Assembly: GCA_016217555.1 (NCBI GenBank)
Contig: JACRHW010000017.1
Coordinates: 5,093-69,092, forward strand
Reading direction: 5' to 3'
Source: Parcubacteria group bacterium
Lineage (GTDB): Bacteria; Patescibacteriota; Minisyncoccia; UBA6257; JACRHW01
DNA: 64,000 nucleotides
A program made the translations under genes and the position numbers. Numbering within the stretch: position 1 is the first letter of the stretch; every line of letters starts with the position of its first letter. The notes under the pieces are model-generated. The model made no database searches. It had not been told where the DNA came from and was given only the letters and a program-made list of their open reading frames with translations. This document shows, in pieces, positions 27,017 to 55,516 of the stretch.

Positions 27017-27117
27017 CCCCGTTAGAAGTAGACAAAATGTGTTAAAATCTTTAGGCTAAAAATGTGGTATCTAGATGTATTGAATCTTAAAAACGTTTTC
27101 GCTACTTCTAACGGGGT
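27017..27117. mobile_element. MITE-like element with 15-bp terminal inverted repeats CCCCGTTAGAAGTAG (family F, copy 1), flanked by TTGA/TTGA
   Basis: CCCCGTTAGAAGTAG ... CTACTTCTAACGGGG is a perfect TIR. The flanks are ACTTGA|...|TTGACTT. The second copy at 51688-51786 has TGAA flanks. Confidence 0.55.
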
Positions 27118-29715: not shown

Positions 29716-29922
29716 CGAGGGGTTAGGTTTTAGTGTGTTAGGTTCCAAGGGCTAGAAATATCATGATCGTGCCTCGTTTCCTAATAAATCCCGTTAAAGG
29801 TAGAAAAAATAGTTAGTATATATTATTATTCATGTGTTAAAAACTATGCAACTATCTAAAACAGTCGTTTGTACCTACCCCTAACGGGATAAACTAATTC
29901 CTAAAAGCTAGAAGCTAATACA

Positions 29923-49739: not shown

Positions 49740-50498
49740 ATGAACAACACAAATACAACAATACCAACACCATCTGTTCCCGTTTCTGGGGAGGGGGTTT
49801 TAGATGTCCATACACGAGAGATGATGAAGGCGGGGGTGCATTATGGACATCGTACTTCACGAACACATCCCAAAATGAAGCCTTTTGTCGCTGGCGTCAA
49901 AAACAACATTGAGATTATTGATCTCGAGGCGACGCGTGATCAGCTAGAGAAGGCAATGACCTTTTTAAAAAGTTTGCCTAAGGATGCGCTTATTCTTTTT
50001 GTAGGGACCCTTCCTCCCTCTCAATCAATTGTACGTGAAATTGCTACGGAGCTTGGATGTCTTTCGGTGACAGAGCGTTGGCTGGGCGGGCTTCTTACCA
50101 ATTTCAAAATGGTATCAGGAAGAATCAAGAATATGATCGATCTCAAAAAGAAAAGATTGGCAGGAGAGTTTGAAAAATATACTAAAAAGGAACAACAGGG
50201 TATCAATCATGAAATTCAACGCGCAGAACGAGTTTTTAGTGGACATGACGCACTTATTCGTATTCCTGATGCATTAATCGTGGTAGGTGTAACCCCCCAC
50301 ATGACAGCTATTAACGAAGCGCGTATTAAAAATGTTCCTATTATTGCTCTTGTTGACACCGATGCAAGTCCTGTTCTTATCGATTATCCTATCGCAGCAA
50401 ACGACAATGCTCGTTCAAGTATTGCATACATCTTATCTCGACTTGCTACTGCTATCAAGGAAACACGTGGTACTACTACGCAGGAAGTATCTTCATAA
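49740..50498 (+). CDS. rpsB: 30S ribosomal protein S2
   Basis: MMKAGVHYGHRTSRTHPKMKPFVAGVKNNIEIIDL matches the S2 N-terminus, and synteny with tsf supports it. Confidence 0.9.
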   Translation: MNNTNTTIPTPSVPVSGEGVLDVHTREMMKAGVHYGHRTSRTHPKMKPFVAGVKNNIEIIDLEATRDQLEKAMTFLKSLPKDALILFVGTLPPSQSIVREIATELGCLSVTERWLGGLLTNFKMVSGRIKNMIDLKKKRLAGEFEKYTKKEQQGINHEIQRAERVFSGHDALIRIPDALIVVGVTPHMTAINEARIKNVPIIALVDTDASPVLIDYPIAANDNARSSIAYILSRLATAIKETRGTTTQEVSS

Positions 50499-50529
50499 TC
50501 TGGTATAATCAGACTATAAAATTTAATTC

Positions 50530-51114
50530 ATGGAAAACTACGATCTTATTAAAAAACTTCGTGAGGCAACAGGCGTCTCTCTTATGGAGTGCAAAAATGC
50601 ACTTGAGGAAATGGGGGGTGATTTTGATAAAGCATTCGAGTTGATGAGAAAGAAGGGGATTGCCAAAGCAGAGAAGAAGGCAGAGCGAGCCACAGGGGTA
50701 GGAAGAATAGAGGCGTATGTTCACGCAGGTAATCGTGTGGGAGTGCTTCTTGATATTCGTTGTGAGACAGATTTTGTCGCTCGAAATGAAGTATTTATAG
50801 AGTTGGCGCACGAGGTTGCCATGCAGATAGCAGCACTTTCTCCAAGGTACGTGAATAGTGATGAGGTTCCTGCGGAGGTTATTGCAAGTGAGCGCGCTAT
50901 ATTTGAGGCAAGTATGGCAGACCAAAAGAAACCAAAAGAAATGCTCGATAAAATTATCGATGGTAAACTTGCAAAACGTTTTGAGGAGATGTGTCTTTTA
51001 GATCAGCCTTTTATTAAGGATCAGACGATGAAGGTGCGCGATATTATTAAAAATTATATTTCAAAGTTGGGTGAAAATATCGTGGTGGCACGCTTCACCC
51101 GTTTTGAGGCATAA
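50530..51114 (+). CDS. tsf: Elongation factor Ts (short form)
   Basis: LIKKLREATGVSLMECKNALEE (UBA-like N-terminus) plus a dimerisation core; lies downstream of rpsB. Confidence 0.85.
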   Translation: MENYDLIKKLREATGVSLMECKNALEEMGGDFDKAFELMRKKGIAKAEKKAERATGVGRIEAYVHAGNRVGVLLDIRCETDFVARNEVFIELAHEVAMQIAALSPRYVNSDEVPAEVIASERAIFEASMADQKKPKEMLDKIIDGKLAKRFEEMCLLDQPFIKDQTMKVRDIIKNYISKLGENIVVARFTRFEA

Positions 51115-51119
51115 TCTTC

Positions 51120-51476
51120 ATGTACGCGTTTTTCCCTTATTTCGGTATTTTCCTTGGGTTGGGTTTGGTGCTTTACGTAGTGATTAAAAATATCCCTGCA
51201 ACAGGAGACGAAGAGCTGATGCTTCTTTATGAGCGGTTTTCTATTCGGCGCTATGTTTCACATGCTACTATAGAGAAAATAGATGGATATGCTGCAGTGT
51301 ATTCAGAGAAGGTGTTAAGAAAGACGAGGGTATTTCTTCTTAAGGCAGAACGTTCTGTTTCAGGCGCTCTTCACCACATGAAAGAAATTGCCCACAGAAC
51401 TTCTCATGCAAAGAAGAATAGTATCGTAAGTTCGGTTGCAGAAGAGAAGAAAGAAGACGAGAAGTCTGCCAAGTAG
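51120..51476 (+). CDS. Hypothetical small membrane protein
   Basis: 118 aa with one N-terminal TM helix and a K/E-rich tail. Confidence 0.3.
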   Translation: MYAFFPYFGIFLGLGLVLYVVIKNIPATGDEELMLLYERFSIRRYVSHATIEKIDGYAAVYSEKVLRKTRVFLLKAERSVSGALHHMKEIAHRTSHAKKNSIVSSVAEEKKEDEKSAK

Positions 51477-51580
51477 TGCCACCTTAGCTCAGCTGGCAGA
51501 GCAACACTTTTGCTCCGATATTGTATAAAATCATAAATTTTGTACAATATCGAGAGTCCTCGATTTTATAAAAAAAATTT

Positions 51581-51654
51581 GCCAGAGTAGCTCAGCTGGC
51601 AGAGCAACACTTTTGTAAAGTGAAGGTCGCGAGTTCGAATCTCGCCTCTGGCTC
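51581..51654 (+). tRNA. tRNA-Thr (anticodon UGU)
   Basis: GCCAGAG...CTCTGGC-T acceptor stem, anticodon loop TTTGTAA and T-loop GTTCGAATC. Confidence 0.8.
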
Positions 51655-51687
51655 ACGCAAATTTTTATAAAATCGGGATAAAGTGAA

Positions 51688-51786
51688 CCCCGTTAGAAGT
51701 AGGTAAAAACATTTGTTGTTCGTCTCGTGTATATCATAGATGGTACAATAATGTAGAAAAATTGTTTTTGTATACTTCTAACGGGG
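51688..51786. mobile_element. Family F MITE-like element, copy 2, inserted into the 3' half of the split tRNA (TGAA duplication)
   Basis: CCCCGTTAGAAGTAG ... CTACTTCTAACGGGG. The flanks are AAGTGAA| and |TGAAGGTC. Confidence 0.55.
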
Positions 51787-51827
51787 TGAAGGTCCTCGGT
51801 TCGAATCCGAGAGGTGGCTCAGGTATT

Positions 51828-51910
51828 GGGTGCGTCGCATAGCGGCAATTGCATGTGGCTGTAAACCACACGTCCTCGTGACTACGGGGGTTCGAGTCCC
51901 TCCGCACCCA
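51828..51910 (+). tRNA. tRNA-Tyr (anticodon GUA)
   Basis: GGGTGCG...CGCACCC-A acceptor stem, a 3-bp D-stem, anticodon loop CTGTAAA and a long variable arm (type II). Confidence 0.8.
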
Positions 51911-51926
51911 CTTAATGGTGTATAAG

Positions 51927-51957
51927 AAAAGCGCCATTGTGTGGGCGCTTTTTGTTT
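51927..51957. terminator. Bidirectional Rho-independent terminator
   Basis: GCGCC-ATTGTGTG-GGCGC followed by TTTTTGTTTTT, between the tRNA cluster (+) and the patatin-like gene (-). Confidence 0.5.
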
Positions 51958-52821
51958 TTAGATTTGTTGGAGGGCTTGAATGGTGAGTTTGTATCCTTGA
52001 TCGATAGAGTCTGAAATCTCTCCTTTTGAGAAATTGACGACGGTAAGATTCTGATACGTCTTGATCGGCTTAATGATGAGGATTTTCTTTCTGCCCACGA
52101 TCATTTCAAGCATGCGTAAACTTTTCTTTAGATTGTCAAAATAGATATAGTTGGATCCCCCCAGAGACTTCCAGCTTCCGGCAGGCATAAGGATGGGCCT
52201 TAATGCAGGCGTAAAGGGGTCTATTTGATGTTCTGGGTCAATTACAATGATGAGGTCAAGCATCTTTTTTATATCTTCTAGGGCTTCGGGGATCCATACA
52301 AAACCATCACAATAATCCATACCATTTATATGAACAGGAGGCATAATACCCGGAATACTTGCAGAAGCAAGAATTAATTTAATCAGGTACTTTTCGTTAT
52401 TACCTTGTGTCTTTAAACTTTTTGAAGAGAATAATTCTGCTTCATTGGTATTAAGATTTCGGGCTATTATGTCTAGGCGGGCATGAGAGGCAATGATTTT
52501 TCCTGCATCTATTTTTTTGATCAGTTCTTCAACGCGTTTATTGGGTTTATTTCTTCCTGCCTGGTTTAAGATAATGGTAAGTAAATCAAATAACTGACCA
52601 ACCCCCATCCGTTCTACATCTTGCCAAACACGTATTAGGGGATCGGCTGTAAAGTCATCTGAAATAAATTTTGCACCGTTGAATGTTCCTCCTGATACGA
52701 CTTGTAGGTAGGGGATATTTTCCTTTGGAATGTATTCTGTGATTGCTTTAAGGGCACCCGCCTGGAAGGCACATTTACAACCTCCGCTGGGCAGTATAAT
52801 TCCGACTTTTTGATGTTTCAT
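51958..52821 (-). CDS. Patatin-like phospholipase family protein
   Basis: N-terminus ILPSGGCKCAFQAGAL (Gly-rich oxyanion motif) and VVSGGTFNG (GxSxG-like). Confidence 0.45.
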   Translation of the reverse strand: MKHQKVGIILPSGGCKCAFQAGALKAITEYIPKENIPYLQVVSGGTFNGAKFISDDFTADPLIRVWQDVERMGVGQLFDLLTIILNQAGRNKPNKRVEELIKKIDAGKIIASHARLDIIARNLNTNEAELFSSKSLKTQGNNEKYLIKLILASASIPGIMPPVHINGMDYCDGFVWIPEALEDIKKMLDLIIVIDPEHQIDPFTPALRPILMPAGSWKSLGGSNYIYFDNLKKSLRMLEMIVGRKKILIIKPIKTYQNLTVVNFSKGEISDSIDQGYKLTIQALQQI

Positions 52822-52957
52822 AGTTTTTCCTCCTTATTGTGTCAAAGTGCACACCTTACTACTATCTAGCGCGAATGAGCCTTTCTGTAAACCCATACAC
52901 TCTACTCTTCTCTTTTTTCTAAAACTTTGATAAAGTAAGTCTTAGTGTATAGATATC

Positions 52958-53029
52958 GCCGGACTAGCTCATTGGTAGAGCGCATCCCTGAAGAGGATGG
53001 CGTACCCAGTTCGATTCTGGGGTCCGGCA
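52958..53029 (+). tRNA. tRNA-Phe (anticodon GAA)
   Basis: GCCGGAC...GTCCGGC-A acceptor stem, anticodon loop CTGAAGA and T-loop GTTCGATTC. Confidence 0.85.
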
Positions 53030-53094
53030 CAATAGAGCTCTATCTTCTAAAGAATAAGCTTTGCTACGGGCTTATTTTTTGTTATCATGAAAAT

Positions 53095-53679
53095 ATGATT
53101 AATAAAGAAAAGCTTTTTGAATTATATACGCATGAAGGTAAATCAATGCAAGAAATTGCAATACTTTTGGGTTGCTCTGTTCACACTGTGGTTTATTGGA
53201 TGCAAAAGTATGATATTAAAAGGCGTTCTATAAGTGAGGCGGTATATAGAAAATGTAATCCAGGCGGAGATCCTTTTGAATTTGTTTTTCCAACCAATCA
53301 AGAAGAAGCACAATTATTTGGTTTAGGGATTGGTCTTTATTGGGGAGAGGGAACAAAAGCAAACGAGAGTTCTGTCCGTTTAGCCAATACCAATCCCGAG
53401 CTAATTAAGAAATTTATAGAGTTTCTTATTACATTTTTTAATATTAAAAAAGGTGATCTTAGGTTTGGCTTACAGATTTTTACAGATATTGATCCTAAAA
53501 AAGCTATGGACTTTTGGATAAAAAAGCTTACAATAAACAGGGATCAATTTTATAAGACGATTATTACGAAATCTGGTTCACTGGGTACTTATAGAAAGAA
53601 AAGTGAATACGGAGTGATTAGTGTTATGTATCACAATACTAAGATGAGAAATGTGTTAGTTGGTCTTTTGCCAATGTAG
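53095..53679 (+). CDS. HTH protein with a LAGLIDADG-like motif (candidate free-standing homing-endonuclease-like gene)
   Basis: N-terminal HTH KSMQEIAILLGCSVHTVVYWM, then LFGLGIGLYWGEGTK, which resembles the LAGLIDADG / GxxxGEGS motif. The stop overlaps the next tRNA. Confidence 0.35.
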   Translation: MINKEKLFELYTHEGKSMQEIAILLGCSVHTVVYWMQKYDIKRRSISEAVYRKCNPGGDPFEFVFPTNQEEAQLFGLGIGLYWGEGTKANESSVRLANTNPELIKKFIEFLITFFNIKKGDLRFGLQIFTDIDPKKAMDFWIKKLTINRDQFYKTIITKSGSLGTYRKKSEYGVISVMYHNTKMRNVLVGLLPM

Positions 53680-53742
53680 CTCAGCTGGTAGAGCAACTCC
53701 ATGGTAAGGAGTAGGTCCGCGGTCCGAATCCGCGCATTGGCT
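53670..53742 (+). tRNA. tRNA-Thr (anticodon GGU)
   Basis: GCCAATG...CATTGGC-T acceptor stem and anticodon loop ATGGTAA. Confidence 0.85.
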
Positions 53743-53813
53743 CTGGTCTGGTTTTCTTGAAAAGCTTGTTACTTTTTTGGAAGTGTGATATATATGTTTA
53801 TTACCTTATAATT

Positions 53814-53984
53814 ATGGCAACATCAAAATTTACTGCGAATTTGTTACGTCTTAAATGTACCGGCTGTGCCCGGATGAATTATTATACCCGCAAGAACAAA
53901 AAGACTGTTGAGCGCAAGCTTGATCTCAAAAAATATTGCAAGTGGTGTAAGATGAGGAAGTCTCACAAAGAAGTAAAGAAGTAA
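53814..53984 (+). CDS. rpmG: 50S ribosomal protein L33
   Basis: KCTGCARMNYYTRKNKKTVERKLDLKKYCKWCKMRKSHKE is the L33 signature. Confidence 0.8.
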   Translation: MATSKFTANLLRLKCTGCARMNYYTRKNKKTVERKLDLKKYCKWCKMRKSHKEVKK

Positions 53985-54063
53985 TAGGATAGTTTTTCTT
54001 GAATTTCGGATACAATAAGTTACAATTGAAACACATCCCAAGAGATGTGTTTCTTTTAATAAT

Positions 54064-54134
54064 GGGGCTATAGTTCAATGGTAGAATGTTGGTCTCCAAA
54101 ACCAATGATCAAGGTTCGAATCCTTGTGGCCCCG
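54064..54134 (+). tRNA. tRNA-Trp (anticodon CCA)
   Basis: GGGGCTA...TGGCCCC-G acceptor stem, anticodon loop CTCCAAA and T-loop GGTTCGAATCC. Confidence 0.85.
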
Positions 54135-54307
54135 CAGTGAACGAAGTGAGCAAGGGGCCAAGCACGCCAACTGCTTGGCGTGCGTCAAGGATTCGAAAGC
54201 CGGAGCATGTCCCGAGTTTGTTGAGGGACGCGAGGCGGGGTCGACGGGCTTCCGAAGGAAGAACCGGTGACCGCATCTTTGTGGCGACTGAGTATATAAA
54301 AAATATT

Positions 54308-54868
54308 ATGGATGAAATACAGCAGAGAAATATAATCCTCTACGGAGTTCCCGGTTCTGGTAAAACATCTCTTGGGCAGGCGCTAAGTGAAGAGCTAAAA
54401 CTTTTTTATATAGAGGCGGATGAAATAAGAAAAATTGGTAAACAAAATCGGTCTTTAGAAACCGATCCGTTTTTCTTTTTGCCTACCACAGAAGCGTATC
54501 AGGCTATTGGAGAATGTACTGGTGAAAATATAATAAAAGGGTTGTTTGGTGTGCGCGGTGCTTATAGGGATTTGGTTCATCGAGAGGTTATTTCGCATGA
54601 AGAACCATGTATTATTGAGGCTGCTTTCCTTGATCCCATCTTCTTAAAAAACGAGGGGTTAGAAATATTGGTTGTTGTATCTTCGGAGGAAAAACATCGA
54701 CAGCAGTTTTTTACACATCGCACAGAAGATGCTCTCACCGAGAGGCAGTTTAAGAACGCAAGAATTATTCAAGATTTTTTAATCAGGGAAGCAGGGCAAG
54801 TAGATACCACTATTCTCGAAAATGACGGTGATATAAAATCCTTGGTTGAAAAATTAAAAAAGTTGTGA
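54308..54868 (+). CDS. Hypothetical P-loop NTPase/kinase-like protein
   Basis: Walker A ILYGVPGSGKTS; about 186 aa. The track ORF extends upstream over the tRNA and is not believed. Confidence 0.4.
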   Translation: MDEIQQRNIILYGVPGSGKTSLGQALSEELKLFYIEADEIRKIGKQNRSLETDPFFFLPTTEAYQAIGECTGENIIKGLFGVRGAYRDLVHREVISHEEPCIIEAAFLDPIFLKNEGLEILVVVSSEEKHRQQFFTHRTEDALTERQFKNARIIQDFLIREAGQVDTTILENDGDIKSLVEKLKKL

Positions 54869-54910
54869 CCGCATTTGGGTGGACTTGGAAAAGTTTAAAT
54901 ATTTTAGTTT

Positions 54911-55516
54911 ATGATAACGGCAATTATTTTTGATTTTTGGGAAACCCTTGGCACCAAGAATGTCGGTATTTCAAAGTCGCTACAGCAGCAATTTGATATT
55001 CCTAAGGGTGACGATTTTTCTGAAAAATATGAAAAGGCGGTGCAGTTGCACCCATGGGAAAATGAGGAACAAATGGCGAGGAATTTTCTTCTTGAATTTG
55101 GTGTAGACCAGATTGGAGAAAATATACAATTTGTAACTGAACTTTTCAAAAAAGGGGTGGATAATGCAAGTCTATTTGATGGCATTAAGGACCTTCTCGT
55201 TTCTTTGAAGGAAAAAGGTTTTAGATTAGGACTTCTTTCCAATACCACTATTTTTGAATCCACAGTTCTTAAAAACCTACAGATTGCTGATTTATTTGAT
55301 GCAGTTGTATTTTCTTGGCATAAAGGAAACCTGAAGCCGTCATTGGAATCTTTTGAGCATATTCTTTCTGAACTCAAGCTGTCAAAAGACCAGGTGATTT
55401 TTATTGATGATACCAAAAAGAATATCTCTGCTGCTGAACAGTATGGAATACGGTCCATTAGGTTCGAATCGGTTTTACAGCTTTTGGAAGAGTTGAAAAA
55501 AATAGGGATTTTATAA
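54911..55516 (+). CDS. HAD-superfamily hydrolase
   Basis: Motif I IIFDFWETLG (DxW variant), LLSNTT and IFIDDTKKN. Confidence 0.5.
   Translation: MITAIIFDFWETLGTKNVGISKSLQQQFDIPKGDDFSEKYEKAVQLHPWENEEQMARNFLLEFGVDQIGENIQFVTELFKKGVDNASLFDGIKDLLVSLKEKGFRLGLLSNTTIFESTVLKNLQIADLFDAVVFSWHKGNLKPSLESFEHILSELKLSKDQVIFIDDTKKNISAAEQYGIRSIRFESVLQLLEELKKIGIL

Follow-up and report, generated by a model that had tools for sequence, protein, structure and literature searches.

A probable mobile double-hairpin element carrying a tRNA-Thr(UGU) gene in the anticodon loop of a tRNA-Thr(UGU) gene of a Parcubacteria-group bacterium

Introduction

Mobile elements that reside in essential, conserved genes are thought to need a means of self-removal, as in self-splicing introns and inteins, or a means of repair, as in genomic islands that regenerate the 3' end of a tRNA gene. 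Here we describe a tRNA-Thr(UGU) gene from a Parcubacteria-group metagenome-assembled genome (contig JACRHW010000017.1) that is interrupted in its anticodon loop by a 166-nt insert with a complete tRNA-Thr(UGU) gene of its own (insert 1), and further downstream by a 99-bp insert (insert 2). The stretch analysed, hereafter the window, comprises 64,000 nt; all coordinates are positions in the window, and loci from other assemblies are designated by L numbers. In our reading, which we consider probable, insert 1 is a mobile DNA element, non-autonomous and with the tRNA as its cargo, from a double-hairpin family that extends across the Patescibacteria: a selfish element, acting at the DNA level, that destroys an essential tRNA gene yet brings a spare, the interrupted host gene being a pseudogene and the nested tRNA its replacement.

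The closest described structures are the mitochondrial double-hairpin elements (DHEs) of Allomyces, other chytrids and Schizosaccharomyces octosporus (Paquin & Lang 1996; Paquin et al. 2000; cited in PMC10085805). DHEs resemble the insert-1 family in being short, in consisting of two adjacent hairpins, in being presumed mobile, in lying in intergenic regions as well as in rRNA genes and in having no transposase of their own; they differ in being GC-rich, fungal and mitochondrial, they are not known to have cargo genes, an anticodon-loop target or a nested tRNA, and there is no sequence relationship. The insert-1 family is set apart from them by conserved hairpin feet and by cargo in the second loop. 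The palindromic elements of Rickettsia (RPEs) are said to lie in frame in protein genes, where they are read through. They differ from insert 1 in having no cargo, and no case is known in which they break an essential tRNA gene and bring a substitute for it.

Integrative elements that target tRNA genes reportedly restore the 3' part of the gene from their attP site. Like insert 1 they use a conserved tRNA target, often the anticodon loop, and viability is kept by bringing the missing tRNA sequence, but they are kilobases long, driven by an integrase, and form a hybrid gene through a duplicated 3' part only, whereas insert 1 has 166 bp, holds a whole independent tRNA gene nested in the broken one and shows no core duplication. 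The palindrome-associated transposable elements (PATEs) of IS200/IS605 are characterized by terminal hairpins, by insertion without duplication on the 3' side of a short conserved target and by an HUH Y1 transposase in autonomous copies. The insert-1 family makes no target duplication, and the preceding base is mostly G, the following one mostly T (judged by eye); on the other hand, the junctions lie at the hairpin feet, the cargo lies within the second hairpin and not in the space separating the two, and the sole associated open reading frame (ORF) found is of the GIY-YIG type, not TnpA.

Free-standing homing endonuclease genes (HEGs) of the GIY-YIG and LAGLIDADG types are comparable in their presence or absence at a conserved site, in signs of flank co-conversion and in the occurrence of versions with and without the nuclease, and HEG-like ORFs lie beside tRNA genes at the present locus both in the window and in a relative (L003). 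Classical homing elements avoid harm by splicing or by an intergenic site, insert 1 apparently by a substitute gene; nuclease activity is here predicted. The split and multi-intron tRNA genes of archaea (Nanoarchaeum equitans, Thermoproteales) need a bulge-helix-bulge (BHB) motif, the endonuclease EndA and a ligase. They are like this locus in being interrupted at several non-canonical positions, and the helix that flanks the nested gene could hold the host halves together, but the BHB geometry is absent and the organism is a bacterium. Within the Patescibacteria, group I introns of typical length were described in 2026 at position 35/36 in tRNA-Asn as well as tRNA-Asp and were shown to self-splice (PMC13011429). 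These introns share with insert 1 the phylum, the unusual position in the anticodon loop and the property of being missed by standard tRNA annotation; insert 1 differs from them in lacking a ribozyme core, in standing after a G and in its tRNA cargo.

Organization of the interrupted gene

The host gene follows rpsB, tsf and a 118-aa ORF, the end of which is one base before the host tRNA. The locus is organized as follows (HP1 and HP2, hairpins 1 and 2 of insert 1; MITE, miniature inverted-repeat transposable element).

51478-51512, forward strand: host nt 1-35, GCCACCTTAGCTCAGCTGGCAGAGCAACACTTTTG; acceptor 5' strand, D arm, anticodon-stem 5' strand and loop to G35; identical in orthologues L003, L008 and L010
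51513-51556, forward strand: insert 1, HP1 (CTC-CGAT...ATCG-A-GAG); inverted repeat, present in the minimum-energy fold
51557-51580, forward strand: insert 1, left arm of HP2, TCC-T-CGATTTTATAAAAAAAATTT; pairs with 51654-51678 (inverted repeats, fold)
51581-51653, forward strand: nested (cargo) tRNA-Thr(UGU), intact; ARAGORN, and Rfam tRNA with 67.6 bits, E 1e-13
51654-51678, forward strand: insert 1, right arm of HP2, end ...AAAATCGGGA (inverted repeats, fold); right end ATCGGGA kept in all family members
51679-51687, forward strand: host nt 36-44, TAAAGTGAA; the closing TGAA is copy one of the target duplication made by the MITE
51688-51786, no strand assigned: insert 2, 99-bp MITE with inverted ends CCCCGTTAGAAGTAG / ATACTTCTAACGGGG; inverted repeat, end-motif count, empty orthologous site
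51787-51790, forward strand: second TGAA copy of the target-site duplication; comparison with family copies
51791-51819, forward strand: host nt 45-73; variable loop, T arm, acceptor 3' strand and discriminator; identical to orthologues
51828-51911, forward strand: tRNA-Tyr(GUA), downstream neighbour within this transcription unit; ARAGORN, Rfam
51926-51953, forward strand: terminator-like hairpin with T run, closing the rpsB-tsf-ORF-tRNA unit; hairpin scan

When the three host pieces are joined they give a 73-nt tRNA-Thr(UGU) with a perfect cloverleaf (ARAGORN), in which the acceptor strand GCCACCU, the T stem CUCGG and a continuous UUUUG-UAAAGUGAA-GGUC are found. A preliminary description of the locus, made from the sequence alone, had already proposed such a flawless joined gene and had placed the 5' half correctly at 51478-51512, which is identical to nt 1-35 of the orthologues. 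The continuation it set at 51678-51687 is one base off, since TAAAGTGAA occupies 51679-51687, and the first gap has 166 nt (51513-51678) where 165 had been counted. The host 3' piece does extend to 51819, as described, but the sequence from 51787 reads TGAA then GGTCCTCGGTTCGAATCCGAGAGGTGGCT, so that the first four bases belong to the duplication and the host resumes only at 51791. A hairpin and a complete tRNA-Thr(UGU) are indeed both present in the first gap, whereas the 14/14 inverted repeat 51561-51574 / 51662-51675, which encloses the nested tRNA, had been overlooked. The account of the second gap as a 99-bp element with terminal inverted repeats and a TGAA duplication is borne out by ends that match at 14/15 positions and by the empty site.

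The arms of HP1 are 16 nt long with 94% complementarity, and the minimum-energy RNA fold of insert 1 consists of HP1 and a stem of about 20 bp around the cloverleaf (z = -6.85). The nested tRNA is identical to the host over nt 8-48 and, in agreement with the preliminary description, differs from it only by compensatory changes, in three acceptor-stem and four T-stem pairs. Its cloverleaf is canonical, with G1-C72, C2-G71, G35, U36 and the anticodon UGU; the first four of these are the identity elements of threonyl-tRNA synthetase, and as far as its sequence tells the gene should be a functional tRNA-Thr. No promoter-like site was found in 51000-52000, and the nested tRNA is therefore probably transcribed from upstream.

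Among all Rfam families at E<=1, the region 50000-55000 matched only five intact tRNAs and, weakly and by chance, FsrA, with no intron or ribozyme family. The 5' exon of a group I intron needs a terminal U for the G-U pair of P1, but the exon here ends in ...UUUUG (G35). The part of insert 1 that is not tRNA amounts to only 92 nt in two plain hairpins, and the smallest family members have 39 nt. Although position 35/36 and phylum are those of the introns known from tRNA-Asn and tRNA-Asp (PMC13011429), the probability that insert 1 is a self-splicing group I intron of that kind is in our judgement negligible. An intron of the archaeal BHB type was also considered and rejected, as the two 3-nt bulges and the 4-bp helix are absent and both junctions lie, by inspection, at the feet of perfect hairpins. 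The group I or BHB features for which the preliminary description had proposed to fold the insert were accordingly found neither with Rfam (E<=1) nor in the fold nor by hand inspection.

Empty orthologous sites

In relatives whose EF-Ts is 91-92% identical, the same locus holds an uninterrupted tRNA-Thr(UGU) that agrees with the joined host at 73/73 positions (L002/L003, L008, L010); ARAGORN calls in L004 and L005 agree with this. The gene order of the relatives is rpsB-tsf, an ORF of 114-115 aa, tRNA-Thr(UGU) and tRNA-Tyr, and the orthologous sequence is ...TTTTGTAAAGTGAAGGTC, in which TGAA is present only once. Both inserts are delimited exactly by comparison with these empty sites. Insert 1 entered as one unit of 166 bp exactly between G35 and T36 (TTTTG|TAAAG), without target duplication, and insert 2 made a true 4-bp duplication of TGAA (nt 41-44).

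The host pieces are free of decay, with zero substitutions relative to the orthologues. By this measure both inserts appear to be recent, and the host halves are best read as a very recent pseudogene. The uninterrupted locus that the preliminary description had suggested seeking in related genomes thus exists, and the halves are not unrelated fragments; one of the two explanations offered there, recent insertions with the nested copy as replacement, fits the empty sites in close relatives and the undecayed host pieces.

The exact boundaries also bear on integrase-mediated integration, in which the insert would be the remnant of a phage, an integrative and conjugative element or a genomic island, and the tRNA copies its att-site duplicates. 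The anticodon loops of tRNA genes are classic integration sites and partial tRNA duplicates the usual scars, and non-CPR (Candidate Phyla Radiation) loci found in the genome search reported below may be of this type. Here, however, the host pieces abut at 35/36 with no duplicated core, which led us to reject the att model; the insert has only 166 bp, no integrase was detected within it or in the ORFs scanned nearby, the stems of the complete nested gene differ, and the conserved hairpin feet define another kind of element. We regard this origin as very unlikely.

An artefact of metagenome assembly would be conceivable in so far as the tRNA core is repeated within 103 bp and many short contigs of relatives break inside tRNA-Thr. 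It is nevertheless extremely improbable, because unique flanks of 68 nt and 25 nt cannot come from mis-joined tRNA alleles and homologous nested loci are present in dozens of independent assemblies from different studies. The window contig itself is represented in other assemblies by one Logan contig of 968 nt, which ends inside the host 5' half; a search for an exact match to its EF-Ts elsewhere gave none.

The double-hairpin family

The consensus of the family to which insert 1 belongs is 5' CTC-CGAT..ATCG-A-GAG | TCC-T-CGAT..ATCG-GGA 3', with the cargo in the second loop. All four conserved feet (CTCCGAT / ATCGAGAG / TCCTCGAT / ATCGGGA) occur in the window copy, and a common symmetric variant reads TCCCGAT..ATCGAGGA|TCCTCGAT..ATCGGGA. 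The 19-nt joint between HP1 and HP2, ATCGAGAGTCCTCGATTTT, was found in 39 metagenome contigs and in none of the viral contigs searched.

Two hairpins are formed by 30/30 distinct copies examined, the feet being conserved and the distal stems unrelated in sequence. Eight cargo-bearing copies show compensatory changes at alignment columns 17/42, 65/98 and 66/97; in these copies seven pairs have changed on both sides, and 84.7% of cells are paired, whereas sliding the partner gives 61% at most. The covariation score of 0.122, compared with 0.057 in shuffles and reached by 0/500 of them, refers to eight related sequences and to a structure drawn from the window copy. The distal HP1 stem co-varies among these eight copies; its alignment is poor owing to indels, and covariation counts there understate the pairing of individual folds.

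Copies without cargo measure 39-93 nt. Wherever cargo is present it lies in the loop of hairpin 2. Three kinds of element can be distinguished: without cargo, with a tRNA gene and with a GIY-YIG ORF. The last is represented by an ORF of 83 aa in L057/L087 (Pfam 7e-13) and by homologues within the same kind of hairpins in L096 and L100, while in L101 a GIY-YIG homologue stands between a tRNA 5' fragment and an intact tRNA. The 64-kb window contains no GIY-YIG gene and, by BLAST and by fuzzy matching of the joint, no further copy of the insert-1 flanks; phage and plasmid collections yielded generic tRNA-Thr similarity only and no match to these flanks.

Cargo-less copies occupy intergenic sites (e.g. 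upstream of trmD in five different genomes), other tRNA genes, among them tRNA-Ala with copies in antisense, a 23S rRNA gene (L071; Rfam LSU 1067 bits) and protein genes. The two clear cases in protein genes are a LepA-like gene (78 nt, +26 codons) and a putative glycosyltransferase gene (93 nt, +31 codons), both with a length that is a multiple of three and free of stops in the host frame, which indicates that these copies are read through and not removed from the RNA. The empty sites in L003, L008 and L010 together with the family copies in unrelated contexts characterize insert 1 as a mobile element. At five loci, 58-nt double-hairpin copies lie amid short GTATAAGGGG / GACGACG-like repeats, with at least six copies in 15 kb in one of them (L077).

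Nested tRNA genes in other genomes

When 185,579 species genomes were searched for 5' parts of tRNA-Thr with a base other than T at position 36, 41 loci were obtained, over half of them labelled as Patescibacteria lineages. The 24 of these loci that were examined, about 20 of them labelled CPR, hold 26 fragments. All 26 stop at nt 35, and each has an intact tRNA-Thr(UGU) 13-264 nt further on; in several cases the matching host 3' half comes next. At nine non-CPR loci (Alphaproteobacteria and other phyla) tRNA 5' fragments end in ...ATTTG and continue with CAA..., with no nested tRNA nearby; such fragments could have been left by ordinary integrative elements, or could have another cause.

The close relatives of the window element in L036, L039, L070, L081 and L093 have the same flanks, to AAATTT|GCC and (GC)AAATTT. 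In L036 and L039, both from Saccharibacteria, the insert flanks are nearly identical to those of the window. Hosts and cargo stems differ at all five loci. Eight cargo-bearing close relatives, in different hosts and classes, have homologous flanks right to the tRNA ends, from which it follows that element and cargo descend and move together. The isoacceptor of the cargo is that of the host in every case, namely Thr-UGU (cut after UUUUG), Thr-CGU (UUUCG; L068, L073 and L092) and Ala-UGC (AUUUG; L066), and in tRNA-Thr hosts the element is always in sense orientation.

The T arm of the window cargo, GCGAG/CTCGC, recurs in the cargo tRNAs of L068, L070 and L093. With a T arm of the element lineage and a 41-nt core identical to the host, the window cargo looks like a mosaic produced by gene conversion, and such conversion between host and cargo might also keep the anticodons matched. 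As a native gene the nested tRNA was found in 0/185,579 species genomes, both in its exact form and as a degenerate pattern keeping acceptor and T arm, and the degenerate pattern also in 0 viral contigs.

These observations are relevant to a history in two events, in which a cargo-less element entered the host first and the tRNA was captured later into the HP2 loop, or arose by local duplication, and does not travel with the element. Cargo-less copies are common, tandem arrangements of a 5' half with a mini-insert upstream of an identical intact gene exist (L017, L032, L042), and the 41-nt core shared by host and nested tRNA in the window would be expected. Against this history stand the homologous flanks of the eight cargo-bearing copies across hosts and classes, the T arm of the window cargo, which is of the element-lineage type and not of the host type, and the absence of the nested tRNA, exact or degenerate, from the species genomes; in addition, relatives lack both the element and the nested tRNA, for which a single difference of 166 bp is the simpler explanation. 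We consider two events unlikely.

Nesting goes further in other genomes than in the window. L059 is a nest of four levels, in which the outermost host and the innermost tRNA are intact and the two hosts between them decayed, and its level-2 tRNA matches, by eye, the sequence of the intact L081 cargo, which shows that a cargo tRNA can be invaded in turn; L034 has three levels. In the window subfamily 7/10 hosts keep a compatible anticodon stem, while 1/5 pairs are left in L092 and 3/5 in L081. The 3' exon of L081 is identical to that of L039 up to the point of a further insertion, which points to flank co-conversion. Other hosts have deletions of 1-6 nt or are without a 3' half, and the innermost tRNA is always intact.

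Hosts broken at 35/36 often bear extra hairpin insertions in the D, variable or T loop (L073, L081, L093, L070, L044, L036), and dead tRNA genes seem to be preferred landing sites of such elements.

Two variant arrangements were observed. In L019, L021, L025, L027 and L043 the nested tRNA-Thr lies in a single hairpin CCCCGT..ACGGGG after a 4-nt leader (CTTG or CTCG), and in several of them the 3' strand of the host anticodon stem is shortened, by 3 nt in L025 and L027, by 6 in L021 and by 1 in L043; the first 11 nt of the hairpin arm of L043 are the same as the ends of the window MITE. The 4-nt leader of the 'CCCCG...CGGGG' elements (CTTG/CTCG/CCCG) does not fit a target duplication and may be a remnant of HP1. 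At eight loci (L017, L032, L042 and five others) a GC-rich variant (CCACCGCC..GGCGGGG|TsCCGCC..GGCGGsA) sits at 35/36 of a truncated 5' tRNA-Thr copy that ends just past the anticodon stem, followed by an AT-rich spacer and an intact tRNA-Thr. In L017, L032 and L042 this gene shares its 5' half with the fragment, and L032 has two tandem copies.

The state of the hosts also enters into the assessment of protein-dependent splicing. On this explanation the double-hairpin elements would be a new kind of bacterial intron that does not splice itself: a dimeric enzyme recognising the pseudo-symmetric junction of the two hairpins would cut them from tRNA, perhaps also from rRNA, and the exons would be ligated. 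In the window RNase P and RNase Z would free the nested tRNA, the HP2 stem would hold the halves, and endonuclease and ligase would excise both inserts, leaving host and nested tRNAs both at work. The undecayed host pieces, the constant sense orientation in tRNA-Thr hosts, the matching stems kept by several hosts with two or three insertions, cargo in a peripheral loop, as is typical of introns, and the two hairpins themselves, which form a pseudo-symmetric helix with central junctions and a shape that such an enzyme could recognise, are all in keeping with it. The locus, however, has no bulge-helix-bulge, and three exon nucleotides (U36 A37 A38) stand between the 3' junction and the anticodon stem; the copies in protein genes are in frame and stop-free, others lie antisense in tRNA-Ala or upstream of trmD, many hosts show decay, truncation or a chimeric make-up, in contrast to an innermost tRNA that is intact throughout, and close relatives have empty sites. 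To our knowledge there is no bacterial tRNA-splicing endonuclease, which likewise counts against it, and we hold this explanation to be quite unlikely.

Intron-like removal, the other explanation offered in the preliminary description, is accordingly unsupported: there is no matching Rfam family, the insert is too small for group I and has no BHB, the protein-gene copies keep the frame without stops, and some hosts at other loci have decayed or are chimeric. That description had recognized the split host, the nested paralogue and an element with inverted repeats and target duplication; it had missed that insert 1 belongs to a recurrent mobile family with tRNA cargo and that the 99-bp element is an unrelated second hit.

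The 99-bp element

The inverted ends of insert 2, 15 nt long, match at 14/15 positions and are flanked by TGAA on both sides. The end motif CCCCGTTAGAAGTAG has six matches in the window against 0.88 expected, a number reached by 0/100 shuffles. The six motifs delimit three elements of 99-101 bp, in which conservation is confined to the ends; besides insert 2 these are:

27017-27116, no strand assigned: second MITE copy, intergenic, TTGA duplication
29789-29889, no strand assigned: third, diverged MITE copy, intergenic, TAAA duplication

Direct duplications of 4 bp flank 6/6 copies, three from the window and three from unrelated CPR contigs (TTGA, TAAA, TGAA, CTTG, TTCA, TTCA). With terminal inverted repeats, a target-site duplication and several non-coding copies, insert 2 is a MITE with terminal inverted repeats, of a different family and unrelated to insert 1. 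It struck the variable-loop region of the host tRNA with duplication of 4 bp; we propose that it did so later than insert 1 or independently of it, the host gene being dead.

Proposed course of the insertion

Under the reading that insert 1 breaks a gene and brings the spare, the insertion in the anticodon loop would have abolished decoding, which would have made a pseudogene of the resident tRNA gene. The cargo tRNA, co-oriented with the host, would presumably be transcribed from the rpsB-tsf unit, RNase P and 3' processing would free it from the long flanking stem, and it would take over the decoding of ACA. A spare copy of this kind would let the element invade a conserved, essential and usually single-copy target without splicing.

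Spread would most likely occur by recombinational repair of the homing type or by homologous recombination between tRNA alleles, possibly after cleavage of the tRNA allele by a nuclease supplied in trans, as some family members carry GIY-YIG in the same loop. With regard to homing, the analysis found a polymorphic site, the chimeric hosts L081 and L092 and the GIY-YIG cargo of L057/L096/L100, but no such nuclease in the window copy or in the window. Homing-type spread is suggested by the chimeric hosts, the presence/absence polymorphism and the nuclease-bearing relatives.

The broken-gene-plus-spare reading explains the empty sites, the interrupted but undecayed host, the inner gene that is always intact, the isoacceptor match and the nested series. 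It accounts for the constant sense orientation, which the cargo would need for its expression, and for a MITE hit in a gene that no longer matters.

Several points weigh against it. The host halves are without substitution and about 7/10 hosts of the subfamily can be folded once the insert is removed, which splicing predicts equally. No nuclease or transposase for the element was found in the 64-kb window, and the mechanism of mobility is inferred only. The link to GIY-YIG is drawn from a few loci and the in-frame argument from two clear cases in protein genes; expression of the nested tRNA and its role as the only tRNA-Thr(UGU) gene are presumed. The reading leaves unexplained the first entry of a tRNA into the HP2 loop, which happened for at least two amino-acid identities, and two hits within a short time in one 73-bp gene are surprising unless dead tRNA genes are preferred.

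Further observations at the rpsB-tsf locus

In L003, the EF-Ts of which is 92% identical, a protein of 281 aa with LAGLIDADG_3 and helix-turn-helix (HTH) domains (1136-1981; Pfam 8e-14) is encoded between the uninterrupted tRNA-Thr(UGU) and tRNA-Tyr; L008 and L010 are without this gene. In the window the space separating tRNA-Phe from tRNA-Thr(GGU) is taken up by an ORF of 192 aa (about 53095-53670, forward strand). This ORF starts with an HTH (Pfam HTH_23, 1.5e-4, under the curated cut-off) in its N-terminal part and is weakly similar to the LAGLIDADG_3 ORF of L003 (BLASTP E 0.001), the region of the LAGLIDADG-like motif included; possibly a homing endonuclease gene of the free-standing type lies here next to a tRNA gene.

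The tRNA-Tyr(GUA) of the window (51828-51911) diverges strongly from those of L003 (1985-2071), L008 (4271-4357) and L010 (4116-4200), although these relatives share the identical tRNA-Thr sequence. L008 and L010 have two copies of the tRNA-Tyr 3' end (GATTCCCTCTCTGCCCACCAATACAAA), one on either side of an insert of 60-190 nt, and the tRNA genes of this locus seem to turn over quickly. Just upstream of rpmE-rpsB-tsf, a pair of bAvd and reverse-transcriptase genes, resembling a diversity-generating retroelement, is present in the relatives L010 (364-1938), L011 and L012.

Implications

The searchable literature yielded no description of nested tRNA genes or of the double-hairpin family; with tRNA insertions, palindromic elements and MITEs of CPR bacteria and GIY-YIG genes associated with tRNA also covered, only the paper on group I introns turned up (PMC13011429). 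A double-hairpin family, some members with GIY-YIG, in the genome-reduced Patescibacteria is apparently undescribed, and a full substitute gene carried into the anticodon loop of the very gene that is destroyed is a new variant of the known strategies of DHEs, RPEs and tRNA-targeting islands.

For the annotation of CPR genomes the finding means that tRNA halves are easily misread as split or intron-containing genes, or missed, and tRNA counts enter into estimates of genome completeness. The loci allow a direct test of protein-based tRNA splicing in any bacterium; if the intron explanation were true, protein-dependent tRNA splicing would be known from Bacteria for the first time, and the nested loci would be compact polycistrons in which each foldable level is a working tRNA. 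Nested tRNAs serve as markers of horizontal exchange between CPR classes.

This locus and about 40 relatives point to another solution to the problem of occupying an essential gene, namely to break the gene and to deliver a complete spare inside the element itself. If true, this would explain how an enzyme-less element of 166 bp can reside in the anticodon loop of a probably single-copy tRNA gene, why the isoacceptors of cargo and host always match, and how nested tRNA genes arise by repeated invasion.

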